Assembly (NCBI GenBank): GCA_965153455.1
Contig: OZ234494.1
Location: 4,092,001 to 4,156,000, forward strand
From: Sphagnum compactum
Taxonomy: Eukaryota
Direction of reading: 5' to 3'
DNA: 64,000 nt
Of this stretch, positions 27,140-38,739 are shown piece by piece. Numbering within the stretch: position 1 is the stretch's first letter; each line of letters begins with the position of its first letter. A model generated the notes under the pieces. It was not told where the DNA came from, searched no databases, and worked only from the letters and a program-made list of their open reading frames with translations. A program made the translations under genes and the position numbers.

Positions 27140-27600
27140 GGCTCTTTGGCAAAAAGTAACTTTTCCACAAATTTTGTGGCAAGCCGAGACTTTCAAGTTG
27201 ACTTTTCATAGGAAAACTGTTCCACTTCAACTAAGATTATCCCCCCAAAGAGGAATTTTATTAATAGGTTCTTTGGAAACTGGACGATCCTATTTGATAA
27301 AAAATATCGCAGCAGATTCTTTTGTTCCTCTAATAAGAATATCTATAAATAGACTTCTATATAATAAACCAGATGTTATGACTGAGAGTTGGATGAATAT
27401 TTTAATGGAAAGTTTTCAAAGATTGAGTCTAATTCTAGAAATAGCGGGAAGAATGTCCCCCTGTATAATATGGATTCAAGATATTCATAAACTAAATGTG
27501 AATTATTTGACTCAAAATGTAGAATGTATAATATGGATTCAAGATATTCATAAACTAAATGTGAATTATTTGACTCAAAATGTAGAATCTGATAACTTTT
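27140..27600 (+). pseudogene. ycf2: Plastid ycf2 fragment (AAA domain) with internal 63 bp duplication
   Basis: LRLSPQRGILLIGSLETGRSYLIKNIAADSFVPLI ... MSPCIIWIQDIHKLNVN. Confidence 0.9.
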
Positions 27601-28292
27601 CATTGAAAATATAAAAAGAATAATAGATTTTTTTATTATCATTTATTGGTAAAAACCTCCATCGTGTAAGCCCCCAAGTAAGGAGGGCTTACATAGCTTC
27701 TTATTATTATTTTATTGTTTCCAAAAAAAGGAAAATCCTTCCATTTGTTTCTTGTATTGACTAATTAACAAAAATGTGCGAAAATCGTCATATTTGTATC
27801 CAATTTTTCACCGCTTTAATCCACTCGGCCATCTCTCCAGCCTAAAAATTTGCTTTTACTTTAACACGGTATGGGATTACAAGTCTATACTGCAGAGGTA
27901 ATTGACGCAATATATACGAAGTTATTTAAGAATTGAAAAAGAAAAAAGAGAAAGCATTTTTTCAAAGCGTTGGTATTATGAAATCGAGCCAAATGACCCT
28001 TTGTATTTTTTTCCAGCCCAGTCAGATACTGGCTAGGCCGCCCTTTTGTTTGTGAATAGGTAGATAAAGAATGAAGCGAATTATTGGTACAATTCCTTAC
28101 CTAATCTTAGAGCTAAAATACCCGTTATGAAAGCACTTACAAGAGCTATAATAATTTGACTGTCTGAGATTGATGACATCCCTTTATTTACTCCCCCAAT
28201 TATTCATGATATGAACCATCAATTCATCCATAAATTTCATCTAAATTAATCAAATTTTATTAATTTGAATGAAATTTCGGACAAATAGGCCT

Positions 28293-28517
28293 CTGCTTGG
28301 GAGCTTACGGTTTCATGTTCTATTTCACTCCCCGATGGGGGTTCTTTTCACCTTTCCCTTATGGTACTACTTTGCTATCAGTCACCCAGGAGTATTTAGC
28401 CTTGCAAGGTGGTCCTTGCTGATTCATACGGGATTCCACGTGCCCCATGCTACTCGGGTTAGAGCGTAAGCTAGTGATGCTTTCAGCTACTGGACTCTCA
28501 CCATCTGGGGTGCGGGA
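28293..28517 (-). pseudogene. rrn23: Plastid 23S rRNA fragment
   Basis: Reverse complement of 23S 5' domain sequence (caggagtatttagccttgcaaggtggtccttgctgattc). Confidence 0.9.
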
Positions 28518-28570
28518 AGCAACATGGCTTGCCAAAATCGTCTCGGATATGAAACCATATCTTTATAGGA

Positions 28571-28624
28571 CGTGAAATGGCTCATGCATGTTTATTGCCT
28601 GGAGTAACCAAATCTAGTCGGTAG
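28571..28624 (+). pseudogene. rps14: Plastid rps14 3' end
   Basis: REMAHACLLPGVTKSSR*; the consensus ends SSW*. Confidence 0.85.
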
Positions 28625-28844
28625 AGGTAGATTTCAAATAAACAGATTTAGGTGGAAAATTTTAGATGGAAAATGGAATTGAAAATCCCCCAAATTAATT
28701 GAGGGGACCGTGTGTCTGTTGAAGAATGAGCCGGCGACTTATAGGTGTTTCCATTTATTCCCTATTCTTAGTAGGAAAAATCATAGTGGAAAAAAAGAGT
28801 ATGATAGAGATTGAGGGAGATCTAGTTGTCGATTTGGTCTGATC

Positions 28845-28877
28845 AAGGTGATACTCTACCGCTGAGTTATATCCCTA
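28845..28877 (-). pseudogene. trnV: Plastid trnV-GAC 5' half fragment
   Basis: Reverse strand reads agggatataactcagcggtagagtatcacctt. Confidence 0.75.
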
Positions 28878-29649
28878 CCCCAAAGAGAACTTAAATTTTT
28901 CTTCCCCATTTTCGTTTTCCAGAAGTCGAGTAATCTATTACTATCTGATTTTGTAGAATACCCAAAAATAATTTCCTTATTAGCTACTTGAAATTATTTG
29001 TACTTTTTTTCGGGAGTAGTTTAATGGAACGAGAAACTTACTCAATTCATTAAAAACTTACTCAATTCATTAATAAATGAATCGAAGAAGCTTACCATTT
29101 CATTGAAGTACTCCTCTTTATTTATTGGGATTCGACGTATTTCTCGTAAGATTCGAAAACTTATCAGATACCGCTGTTGTATATGTTATACAACAGCGGT
29201 AGAACCAAACTTTTATCAAAAAATTCATTCCTTTGGATTATCAAAAAAAAAGGGGGGGGGGAGGGTAAAAAAACTGGAGAAAAAAAATAAATAGAATTGA
29301 ATATTTTTTTCCTCTTCCTCCAATCCCCTATATACTATATATACATCAGTAGCTTATTTTTATGTAGGCCTTCACAAAAGAGGATTGAATTATTTCAGTA
29401 AATATATCCAGTCGATTCCGGTGCTTCTACCAATTAATATTTGGAAGATTTCACACCTCCTTTTTAGGGAGAGCTAATGCTTGTTGGGCCTTTTGGTTTT
29501 ACGCTGCTTGACACCTAACTCGACACCTGAAAAGAAGCGAGCCACATCATTTGAGCAAAGCTCGGAGATGGAAATTCCTTCGAATGCTATAGTAAGTAGA
29601 CTTCTCCCTATTTTGGTCCCTTCATTTCAATGCACAATAACTTATTTGC

Positions 29650-35711: not shown

Positions 35712-35884
35712 CTATAATTACTTGGCTCATATTTGCAATTTATTTACATACTAGAATGAATAGAGGTTGGCAAGGTAGAAAATCAGCAATTGTAACTTCT
35801 TTGGGATTTCTTATAATTTGGATTTGTTATTTAGGAGTTAATTCATTGGGAAGGGGTTTGCATAGTTATGGATGGTTAATATAG
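35712..35884 (+). pseudogene. ccsA: Plastid ccsA 3' end
   Basis: [53 protein letters not shown]. Confidence 0.9.
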
Positions 35885-36029
35885 TACGCAATTAGGAGAA
35901 TTTATTGGGAAAAAAGATCAGGTATAAAGAAGTAATGAGTAGAATGACGGGATTAACATTCAAAAGGTTACGCGGTCAATGCCTCAAAAAAAGTGAGGAA
36001 AAAAAGGAATGGAAATGACTAACTGGGTT

Positions 36030-36212
36030 GCATCTTCGAAATTATAACCTTCCCATGGCATATATGTTACTAAAACATTCTTTCCCAGAGCCAGTTCTCC
36101 TCTTGAAGTAGCTGCACCGTCTACTATGAGTTGTCCCTTTTTAAAAAAAAATTTCTTATTAACTTGGGATTCTTGATGCACACAAGTACTATTATTGGAA
36201 CGTTGATATATA
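36030..36212 (-). pseudogene. rpoB: Plastid rpoB fragment
   Basis: [12 protein letters not shown] ... [24 protein letters not shown]. Confidence 0.9.
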
Positions 36213-36249
36213 ATCAAATTCGTATCTACTCTCTTATTCAGGTACTTCG

Positions 36250-36630
36250 CCATAGTTTTTAGCAGATAGACCTAATTTTGGTTTAATAATACATCCCAAT
36301 AAGGGACGACCATATTTGTTTAATTTATTTCTCTCAACTTGGATACCATGAGGTGGACCTTGGAAAGTTTTAGTATAGGACAAGGATTCAAATTATTTAA
36401 AATGACTCAAAAAGACATCCATATGTATCCAATCTATTCTTGGATTTTTTATTAGATTAATGGGGGAATCTGTAAATCCTCTAGACGTAGAGCTCGTAGA
36501 GCTTTGAATCCAAAAACATTACCTACAATAGAAGTAAATAAGTTGGTAATAGAACCTTCTTCAAATAAATCTGAAGGATAAGCAACATAAGCAATATATT
36601 GATTTTCTTCTCCAGCTACAGGCTCGATAT
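36250..36630 (-). pseudogene. rbcL: Plastid rbcL fragment interrupted by ~85 bp of unrelated DNA
   Basis: [27 protein letters not shown]...LRLEDLQIP (36463-36630), then an insert, then [43 protein letters not shown] (36250-36378). Confidence 0.9.
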
Positions 36631-36631
36631 C

Positions 36632-37467
36632 AATTCAAGGACGCAAGGTTAGTTCACCTTCATTCTTTTAGGGTAAGGAGGGGTAGAGAAAATACCTCAA
36701 GCCAACGTCCGAGTACTAGGCGCTACGATGCTGAAGTAAACCATGCCACACTCCCAAGAAAAGCTCGAACGACCTTCAACAAGTGGGTACTTGTACCCGA
36801 AACCGACACAGGTCGGTAGGTAGAGAATACCTAGGGGCGCGAGACAACTCTCTCCAAGGAACTCGGCAAAATAGCCCCGTAACTTCGGGAGAAGGGGTAC
36901 CTCATCACCGAGGAGGTCGCAGTGACCAGGCCCAGGCGACTGTTTACCAAAAACACAGGTCTCCGCAAAGTCGTAAGACCATGTATGGGGGCTGATGCCT
37001 GCCCAATGCCGGAAGGTTAAGGAAGTTGGTGACCTGATGACAGGGAAGCCGACGACCGAAGCCCCGGTGAACGGCGGCTGTAACTATAACGGTCCTAAGG
37101 TAGCGAAATTCCTTGTCAGGTAAGTTCCGACCCGCACGAAAGGCGTAATGATCTGGGCACTGTCTCGGAGAGAGACTCGGTGAAATAGACATGTCTGTGA
37201 AGATGCGAACTACCTGCACCTGGACAGAAAGACCCTATGAAGCTTTACTGTTCCCTGGGATTGGCTTTGGGCTCTTCTTGCGCAACTTAGGTGGAAGGCG
37301 AAGAAGGCCCCCTTCCGGGGGGGCTCGAGCCATCAGTGAAATACCACTCTAGAAGAGCTAGAATTCTAACCTTGTGTCAAGACTTACAGGCCAAGGGACA
37401 GTCTCAGGTAGACAGTTTCTATGGGGCGTGGGCCTCCCAAAAGGTAACGGAGGCGTGCAAAGGTTTC
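36632..37467 (+). pseudogene. rrn23: Plastid 23S rRNA fragment (longest NUPT piece, ~835 bp)
   Basis: Contains aaaccgacacagg, gtaactataacggtcctaaggtagcgaaattccttgtc and aaagaccctatgaagctt. Confidence 0.95.
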
Positions 37468-38739
37468 ATTGCTTGTATTACTTTATGGTTGCTTAATATC
37501 TATTCGTATCTACTCTCTTATTATGGAGGTGTTGCCTACCACCCATGCTCTCCAGACCCCAGTGTGGAGCCGAATAAGGATTGAGAACAAAAATGACTTG
37601 TGCTTTTTTGATGGAATACTTTATGCTAGACAGAGATAGAATGTGGCTAAAGACAGTAACTCATCAAAATTCTCCAGAGTTAAGATAATTGTGAAGTAAC
37701 CACCTATCCAAAGTGGGGATGCAAGCTGGGTCTGTGAGGGATGGAAGTTGGGATGTAGCCAACCCCACTGCAGCTCCTCATTGTAGGGTAGAAATCCCAT
37801 GCATCTTTTGAGGTATGATTCAAACTTAAAAGGTTCAATCTCCCTCTTGTACCTGGCAACCACATTTGCAGAATGTCATTACTACTGACCTGATGTTTTG
37901 AGTCTGGCAGACTTAGAGCATACCAATCTTTGAAGTAGGGAAAGTGGAAGAAAAGTCGGGGGGCTGACACAGACAGCTGGTTGTTTAAGACATGGAAACT
38001 CAGGCAAATTGGGTTGAATCCTGAGAAATAGGGGGAAAAGGAAACATTACTTGTATGTGTTCCTGCCTTGATGATGCAGCAAATGCCAGCAAAGATCTCA
38101 AGGAGAAGCTGCCATCTGCAGCTTGCAATTTGAGGAGATGAAGAGTTTTTGAGAAGTACACTTTGATCAAGGGCACTGCTACTGAGGGCAGAGGGGTTAT
38201 CCAGAATATACCCAAATATCCAAAGATCTCTTATGAACAAGTAAATCAAGCTCCTGCATGTGTGACATAGAAAGCAAGAAATATAGTAACCATTAAAGGA
38301 CTGTTGCATCCTGTTCCAAGGACGATGTGCCTTCAAAGAATCACAGAACCATCATCAATGACCCAATATGTCTTCAACATGGCAAAACAAACATCCATTC
38401 ATTTGAACTCCATGGCTGGCTTCCACTGTATGAATGGAGTATCACAAGACCATAAGGTTGTGCAAGAGAGTACCAACAGCGAAAACATTGGGCTACTCTT
38501 GCTGATACAGGGTTTGCAAGAAAGCCAAGCACACTCTTGAATGAAAACTTTCAACTTTCAAGTTAGTGAGCATCTTTTTGTGGGGAATGTGAGGAGAATT
38601 GATCAGATTTGTGCTCAAAGAAGACTTTCCAGTGTTTGCTTACAGCTACCTAGTTAACTTGATGTAAACAAACCGTGTCTGGACTGAAAGCACAATCAAT
38701 CCTATCTCACTTACCAACTGTCACTGTTGAGCTTCCTTT

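Follow-up and report, generated by a model that had tools for sequence, protein, structure and literature searches.

The window analysed here is a 64,000-nucleotide stretch of the genome of the moss Sphagnum compactum (C2:4,092,001-4,156,000, on a 28-Mb contig of a 382-Mb assembly). Between two nuclear genes, one with an LSM domain and the other NOP53, it holds 10,384 bp built from 73 pieces of plastid DNA, a nuclear plastid DNA insertion (NUPT) of the complex kind. Joining of these pieces by end-joining in a single event, at one break between the LSM gene and NOP53, was the best supported explanation and is likely to be the right one. The insert is non-functional, and is an extreme and clean case of a class that has been described before and that is common in this genome.

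The pieces were assigned by short-word BLAST and dynamic-programming tiling of the window against the plastome contig (C702, 140,436 bp, inverted repeat (IR) at about 98,409-108,790); the mitogenome reference was contig C701 (141,156 bp, 24 tRNAs). An earlier description made from the letters alone (the sequence-only reading) had placed the insert at 27140..37522, which was right to 1 bp, and had counted more than 35 plastid pieces, which was correct as to their being many and too low as to their number. That tiling against both organelle genomes, which it had suggested as a check, assigned 9,974 of the 10,384 bp (96%) to the plastome and none of the insert to the mitogenome. The features of the insert that the argument draws on most are as follows.

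27139 to 37522, unstranded: whole insertion, a complex NUPT of 73 plastid pieces and about 400 bp of filler in total
27139 to 27593, plus strand: first fragment, plastome 39569-39960, inside a 2,399-codon open reading frame (ORF) that encodes an AAA domain; 27462-27588 is a tandem duplication of 63 bp
32126 to 32684, plus strand: psbD fragment, plastome 46112-46688, with a 17-bp internal deletion
33396 to 33819, unstranded: five pieces in 424 bp, in the order photosystem II family, 23S, psaA/psaB family, 16S region, photosystem II family
36249 to 36631, minus strand: rbcL fragment, plastome 67752-67450, two colinear halves with 2 bp lost
36634 to 37467, plus strand: longest fragment, 23S rRNA, plastome 105275-106108, 834 bp with 17 substitutions

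The 2,399-codon ORF is presumably ycf2/ftsH. The run of five pieces had been described as psbC, 23S, psaB, 16S and psbB within 425 bp, and was recovered as such, the names psbC, psaB and psbB being ones that we assume from plastome position and the usual gene order.

The median piece length was 110 bp, and 63 of the 73 pieces fell within 25-250 bp, so the sizes given earlier (mostly 25-250 bp, longest about 835 bp) held. So did the mixture of regions and orientations: 48 pieces came from the large single-copy region (LSC), 9 from the small single-copy region (SSC) and 16 from the IR, and single-copy pieces were in plus orientation in 32 cases and in minus orientation in 25. When the tandem duplicate (27525), a fold-back copy (29169), a homopolymer piece (34566) and a terminal copy (37502) were set aside and the two rbcL halves were merged, 68 primary fragments remained, adjoining but non-contiguous on the plastome. 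Pfam named 24 of the 31 plastome ORF stretches that underlie the fragments (photosystems I and II, RuBisCO, RNA polymerase, ATP synthase, NDH, ycf4, ccsA, clpP, ribosomal proteins and a chl gene), and Rfam gave three large-subunit and one small-subunit rRNA matches in the insert. Matches to the mitogenome were either weaker rRNA homologues of better plastome matches or short and at chance level, and neither mitochondrial pieces nor mitochondrial fillers were found; the insert is in this respect not a numin, the name for mosaics of plastid and mitochondrial DNA. The window contained no tRNA genes, and its plastome matches outside the insert did not exceed 37 bp, those with low E-values being simple repeats. 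No second copy of the insert was found among the 39 scored of 691 candidate matches. Capture of plastid DNA by a transposon of the Pack-MULE or Helitron-like type was considered and rejected, as the empty site described below joins the flanks at the plastid boundary and the unique stretches at junctions matched only themselves.

Forty-four of the 64 junctions between primary fragments were direct joins. Twelve of these were blunt, 15, 11 and 3 had microhomology of 1, 2 and 3 nt, respectively, and 3 had 4-7 nt. Microhomology of at least 1 nt was therefore present in 32 of the 44, compared with 45% expected by chance (55% blunt; P = 1.6e-4). The other 20 junctions carried filler, which was 3 nt or shorter in 7 cases. 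These are end-joining signatures at inner junctions, as are known from complex NUPTs; the blunt and 1-2-nt joins would fit classical end-joining, and the templated fillers would fit polymerase theta. The fillers of note were these.

29169 to 29201, unstranded: fold-back filler, templated, 15-16 nt that repeat the beginning of the following fragment in inverted orientation, not in the plastome
30563 to 30645, unstranded: 83-bp filler, unmatched in the plastome, the mitogenome and the rest of the assembly
31247 to 31299, unstranded: 53-bp filler, in which 11 nt from the end of the fragment before it recur as a direct copy (at 31257)
36378 to 36459, unstranded: internal piece of a nuclear repeat resembling a miniature inverted-repeat transposable element (MITE), 82 bp, with 39 other scored matches in the genome, the best at 96%

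Neither the 83-bp nor the 53-bp filler had a genomic match apart from itself, and their matches of 11-14 nt to the plastome and mitogenome look like chance. The last entry contradicts the earlier statement that no recognisable nuclear or transposable-element DNA lies between the plastid pieces. Three copies examined from the family of this repeat (L063-L065; C18, C12 and C8) were about 720-930 bp long, and two of them had terminal inverted repeats of 25-28 nt. In the insert the 82-bp piece sits between the two colinear halves of rbcL, and because only this internal scrap is present, with no element end, it was taken up as filler where the rbcL fragment had broken, and is not the product of transposition.

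The order of the fragments bore no relation to their order in the plastome. Donor positions in the LSC were uniformly distributed (Kolmogorov-Smirnov P = 0.82), fragment lengths fit an exponential distribution (P = 0.69), and only 1 of 67 neighbouring pairs came from within 5 kb of each other on the plastome, compared with 6.2 under permutation. This absence of donor colinearity means that no remnant of a long colinear precursor is left, and speaks against shuffling after insertion, a process that the sequence-only reading had also judged the poorer fit. Plastome 46691-46719, which begins 2 bp beyond the end of the psbD fragment, was placed apart at 30964-30992, and reads linked 32684 to 30964 with 2 letters between. 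Such near-abutment was not in significant excess: gaps of 100 bp or less on the plastome numbered 4 in the window insert, with 2.0 expected (P = 0.14), and near-abutting fragments pooled over inserts numbered 5, with 2.8 expected (P = 0.14). No clear motif for a nuclease cut-site preference was seen at 66 blunt ends from seven inserts, where base counts were judged by eye.

The same junctions bear on a replication-based origin by FoSTeS (fork stalling and template switching) or MMBIR (break-induced replication mediated by microhomology), or by polymerase-theta synthesis, in which a broken nuclear end copies plastid tracts in about 68 switches and no fragments are ligated. Template switching of this kind has been put forward for complex Oryza insertions (PMC12129026, accessible part), and the enrichment of microhomology and the fillers that are local templated copies (the fold-back at 29169, the 11-nt copy at 31257 and a 21-bp copy at 37502) would be expected from it. 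Yet blunt ends account for 12 of the 44 direct joins and the remainder mostly share only 1-2 nt, and successive templates do not lie near each other on the plastome. Furthermore, a template is not consumed by copying, so single-copy fragments should overlap on the plastome at the chance rate, whereas overlaps numbered 0 among 52 single-copy fragments with 3.2 expected (P = 0.038), or 1 with 3.25 expected if the 21-bp terminal copy is counted. Template switching as the source of the whole insert is accordingly considered improbable, although it was the strongest competitor to ligation of fragments.

Divergence from the plastome indicated that the insert has aged in the nucleus, and apparently as one unit. 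There were 147 substitutions in 9,970 bp (1.47%; confidence interval 1.25-1.73), of which 97 were C:G>T:A. C>T changes were found at 39 of 674 CG sites (5.8%), 21 of 412 CHG sites (5.1%), 7 of 166 CCG sites (4.2%) and 30 of 2,627 CHH sites (1.1%). A bias of C>T toward CG and CHG sites is the decay pattern of methylated nuclear DNA, and the insert, with about 5% at CG/CHG and 1.1% at CHH, shows the decay of the nuclear type that a NUPT should have. Because a divergence of 1.47% with methylation-type C>T changes would not be seen in chimeric plastid reads, the insert is not an assembly artefact. Divergence was homogeneous across pieces (chi-square 69.9, 72 degrees of freedom, P = 0.55), the power of this test being 0.79-0.99 against 3- to 5-fold mixtures of ages; multimodal divergence, named in the sequence-only reading as the sign of serial insertion, was not found.

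This homogeneity bears on the possibility that the site is a hot-spot of breakage that captured plastid pieces serially over a long time. The nested nuclear repeat in rbcL, and possibly a nested psbD pair, are of the kind that such a history would leave, and the test has weak power against 2-fold differences in age. However, serial capture should split most of the earlier pieces, and only two split pairs on the same strand and in the right order (rbcL and psbD) were found among the 73 pieces; the divergence is homogeneous, and the relatives have a clean rather than a partial empty site. Serial capture is very unlikely.

Substitutions were also used to ask where the donor DNA had been. The 25 sampled nuclear plastome copies (on C19, C20, C415 and C6) cover 56 of the substitutions in the insert; recent copies share 0-4 of these, mostly at CG sites, and the oldest copy (88% identity) shares 5. 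One site is common to 5 of the 5 nuclear copies that cover it, and is a later change in the plastome lineage. No lineage shared with the insert was detected among the 25 loci, and descent from the large nuclear plastome arrays was rejected; judged from these substitutions, the donor appears to be plastid DNA and not an aged NUPT. A related scenario is that the pieces came from a nuclear plastome copy (a fresh large NUPT or a free plastome) that was shattered in a chromothripsis-like way with 7% of it sealed here, or that a long local NUPT was cut down and shuffled. Shattering likewise predicts non-overlapping pieces, and the divergence of the array on C19 is similar (1.22% versus 1.47%), so that much plastid DNA entered the nucleus at around that time. 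Against this, the absence of shared derived substitutions beyond CG-type hot-spots and the one plastome-lineage change requires that the donor broke before it aged, and shuffling in place should leave colinear runs and disturbed flanks, when almost no such runs remain and both flanks are colinear with two relatives. A brand-new, unaged nuclear donor is compatible with the sequence, but the scenario as a whole is unlikely, and somewhat less probable than template switching.

The two genes that flank the insert are convergent, and the insert lies between their 3' ends, with the stop codon of the LSM gene about 0.9 kb away and that of NOP53 about 1.2 kb away.

25123 to 26235, plus strand: left flanking gene with an LSM domain (LSM1-like by the label of the sequence-only reading), spliced; two exons match Pfam LSM, exon limits set by eye
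27138 to 27140, plus strand: left outer junction, GTG, repeated at 37529-37531; TG are the first two plastid bases
37468 to 37528, unstranded: right outer junction, a 34-bp filler, followed by 21 bp copied from the end of the 36028-36238 fragment and by 6 bp of filler
38740 to 40026, minus strand: right flanking gene, NOP53 (428 aa), transcribed toward the LSM gene

The 21-bp terminal copy (37502) ends at plastome base 9015, as does the fragment 1.26 kb upstream. The GTG at both ends of the insert represents a target duplication of 1-3 bp and/or a 2-nt microhomology. Directly after the LSM stop codon, contigs in three runs skip 132 bp at 26233-26366 (with 30 letters on the short side), possibly from a paralogue.

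Four of 21 listed sequencing runs were compared over positions 23,500-41,500 of the window, including X1 (organism A, conspecific with the window), X5 (organism B) and X12 (organism C); the Hi-C run X21 had a nuclear depth of about 1 and was uninformative for the insert. Contigs of X1 cross both outer junctions (26390-27168 and 37438-39352). In the flanks, 1 of 779 bp and 5 of 1,915 bp differ from the window, which probably makes X1 another haplotype. The empty site for which a search in related accessions had been suggested was present in X5 and X12, where 27137 is joined to 37529 and the 3 letters GTG fit either side. Compared with the window, organism B has other letters at 10 of 668 and 37 of 2,853 flank positions and organism C at 46 of 1,876, so the insertion would be younger than the splits from these organisms or was sorted after them; its age is probably not much below the split of organisms A and B.

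These runs also bear on whether chimeric plastid reads could have produced the insert as an artefact of library or assembly. In the runs, plastid DNA has thousands of times the depth of nuclear DNA, and among the pieces listed, no independent contig spans the insert or shows its internal junctions. Of the junctions for which long-read support had been called for, run X1 shows the two outer ones. Present-day plastid reads could not, however, yield the 1.47% divergence with its CG/CHG-biased C>T changes, the independent run that crosses the outer junctions has a different flank haplotype, and the genome holds 12 other independent mosaics, each with its own divergence. The probability of an artefact is negligible.

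Several observations weigh against a single event, among them the absence of the internal junctions from the independent contigs listed, given above. Assembly was not purely one-step, because the split in rbcL represents at least one nested step and because two other pieces (30964 and 31173) lie inside a psbD pair whose members are separated by 80 bp on the plastome. The power of the age test was only 0.35 against a 2-fold mixture of ages, and about 170 bp of long filler has no source match. At the empty site, the X5 contig has 57 extra unplaced letters between 27057 and 37529 and the joint is marked "between: not known", which leaves room for a target deletion of about 57 bp.

With these points included, the following course of events is proposed. 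Plastid DNA would have escaped and been cut approximately at random into pieces averaging about 140 bp, presumably by nuclease digestion. About 68 of the pieces would have been joined end to end by non-homologous end-joining, with blunt ends, 1-3-nt microhomologies, short fillers and a few templated copies, and captured in one double-strand break between the 3' ends of the convergent genes, little target DNA, if any, being lost; the repair may have been the work of ligase IV, polymerase theta or both. At least one further local repair would have left the nuclear repeat scrap inside rbcL, and the insert would then have decayed as methylated, non-functional nuclear DNA. The sequence-only reading had proposed a concatemer of nuclease-degraded DNA captured at one break. 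The single event and the one break are retained from that proposal; the sequence fits concatenation before capture and addition of pieces at an open break equally, and the part played by nucleases is a presumed one.

A census of other mosaics was made by searching the genome with four 2-kb plastome probes. All 39 loci from the first two probes, excluding the window and the arrays on C19, C20 and C415, were tiled, as were 10 loci picked by hand from the hits of the other two, most of them of high identity. Mosaics of at least six pieces were found at 13 of these 49 loci (10 of the 39 unselected ones), two of which are duplicates of one insert, and their divergence ranged from 1 to 10%.

C1:26,101,361-26,108,554 (L107): 79 pieces (75 plastid, 4 mitochondrial), 7.2 kb, 2.6% diverged
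C4:0.84 Mb: 43 pieces, 9-10%
C10:4.31 Mb: 23 pieces, 1.05%
C18:8.52 Mb: 22 pieces, 3.7%, median 36 bp
C17:5.39 Mb: at least 22 pieces, 3.0%
C15:10.19 Mb: 21 pieces, 5.0%
C16:0.52 Mb: 19 pieces, 4.5%, median 39 bp
C4:4,825,044-4,825,556, with a duplicate 58 kb away near C4:4,883,300-4,883,800 (L096-L098): 15 pieces of 19-47 bp, median 29, 0.5 kb, about 3%
C9: 11 pieces
C11:12.68 Mb: 11 pieces
C1:15.37 Mb: 8 pieces
C4:1.77 Mb: 6 pieces

Mitochondrial and plastid pieces occurred together at C1:26.1 Mb, C9, C15 and C1:15.37 Mb, which makes these loci numins. Divergence did not depart significantly from homogeneity at eight of the nine loci with at least six pieces that were tested, the exception being C1:15.37 Mb (P = 0.006). 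The window insert was the longest among the finely shredded ones that were measured. Fragment size differed strongly between inserts, with medians of 29, 36, 73, 94, 110, 155, 158, 230 and 321 bp in nine inserts (Kruskal-Wallis P = 2e-16), and did not track age; an insert-specific size would be expected if each insert sampled the pool at one stage of breakdown. The 19-47-bp pieces at C4:4.83 Mb may mark the size limit of digestion or of ends that can be joined.

The mosaics were also compared for the number of donor molecules. In the window insert, where single-copy fragments did not overlap, the 16 IR fragments had three overlaps and their depth never exceeded 2. Over ten inserts, with pairs of fragments no more than 100 bp apart in their insert excluded, single-copy overlaps of at least 8 bp numbered 3 with 7.4 expected (P = 0.058), and all three were 15-28 bp long. 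Overlaps of more than 30 bp, a threshold chosen after the data had been seen, numbered 0 in single-copy DNA with 5.2 expected (P = 0.006) and 7 in the IR with 4.2 expected. This pattern is suggestive of one shredded plastome copy. At C1:26.1 Mb, three non-local fragment pairs abut on the plastome within 1-18 bp. The old mosaic at C4:0.84 Mb argues against a universal rule of one molecule, as short single-copy overlaps numbered 2 in its first cluster with 0.43 expected. It is a tentative proposal, and somewhat more doubtful than not, that each mosaic is the stitched remains of one plastome copy at one stage of digestion, and that complex NUPTs are fossil read-outs of the degradation of organelle DNA. 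If it were true, counts of overlaps would tell ligated fragments from template-switch copies, and no experiment would be required for this.

Larger tracts of plastid DNA were seen elsewhere in the genome. C19 at about 2.70-3.37 Mb (L003-L012, L019-L021, L024-L029, L067-L072 and L111-L114) is a rearranged array with about 4-7 copies per single-copy plastome probe, 1.22% diverged over 96,829 bp in 23 loci, and its copies have mostly independent substitutions; it probably results from insertion of several plastid genomes, about 700 kb in all, and probably dates from around the same time as the mosaic in the window. C20 at 0.1-3.0 Mb (L013, L014, L073-L081 and L117-L120) holds an older multi-copy set, 2.71% diverged over 9 loci, in which some copies are near-identical. 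C20 and the mosaic of 79 pieces on C1 (2.59%) are close in divergence, just as C19 and the window mosaic are, and plastid DNA may possibly have entered in bursts. C415 (L015, L016, L115 and L134) is a plastome-like contig with its own inverted repeat, 66-93% identical to C702, and represents an old NUPT or else a plastome from an organism sequenced together with the moss.

Some organelle-derived sequences have been copied within the genome. The same old mitochondrial-plastid mosaic, about 14% diverged, occurs at C18:1.83 Mb and C6:11.66 Mb (L086 and L088), and because it lies on two chromosomes it was duplicated after insertion. A 121-bp plastid piece (L166) occurs at 99% identity in six places (C16:38,806, C11:16,008,896, C9:1,537,865, C3:25,886,987, C2:28,050,305 and C1:17,282,889), four of which lie no more than about 140 kb from the end of a contig, and at C16:38,806 it is fused to a 160-bp mitochondrial piece; it is probably carried in a subtelomeric or mobile repeat. 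Within the window, self-comparison showed degenerate tandem arrays with periods of about 60-120 bp at 14138-14821, 46162-46496 and 53178-53667, and positions 12879-13152 resemble 48452-48723 at 80%.

Rearranged NUPTs of many segments are a standard class (class b in PMC7037861). In Oryza, 272 of 828 polymorphic insertions were complex and formed in single events from several to hundreds of fragments, and 11% of the 828 had long non-organelle fillers (PMC12129026). Noutsos et al., as cited in PMC6215612, reported mosaics that span 3-92 kb and contain as many as 100 segments. In the accessible parts of PMC7037861 and PMC12129026, complex NUPTs and nuclear organelle DNA insertions (NORGs) resemble the window insert in their segments of mixed region and orientation, their microhomology, blunt ends and fillers (non-organelle ones included), their reading as single events and, as far as the outer junctions in one conspecific run and the empty site in two relatives go, their presence or absence as a block. 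The window insert differs in being from a moss rather than a flowering plant, in its median of about 110 bp and in its assignment to 96%; few single-copy overlaps and an insert-specific fragment size were not found treated in those parts. The numins described in PMC6215612 (likewise its accessible part) share end-joining signatures at inner junctions, with joining before or during capture at one break, and differ from the window insert in having mitochondrial pieces. In tobacco, the classical end-joining pathway and that of polymerase theta appear to back each other up in the integration of plastid DNA (PMC12181080, as far as its accessible text goes). Physcomitrella concatenates free linear DNA in planta before integration (PMC1693892, in part), which is alike in being concatenation in a moss nucleus; there it is mostly homologous recombination of kilobase constructs, whereas no target homology is seen here. 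No literature on Sphagnum NUPTs or on a one-molecule overlap test was found in a search with incomplete coverage of subscription papers, and supplements may list equally fine-grained inserts.

The insert alone changes no model. Its value is that of a clean specimen: the plastome of the same genome is at hand, 96% of its length is assigned, its pieces fit one age, two relatives show the empty site, and a dozen sister mosaics of different ages accompany it in the genome. The set of mosaics allows ligation versus template-switch copying, and the number of donor molecules, to be asked from sequence, a point left open by the rice and tobacco papers in their accessible parts (PMC12129026 and PMC12181080). 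The mosaics also hold scraps of rbcL, psbD, 16S and 23S that are 98-100% identical to the plastome, and these can mislead barcoding, plastid variant calling and the cleaning of assemblies in these mosses.

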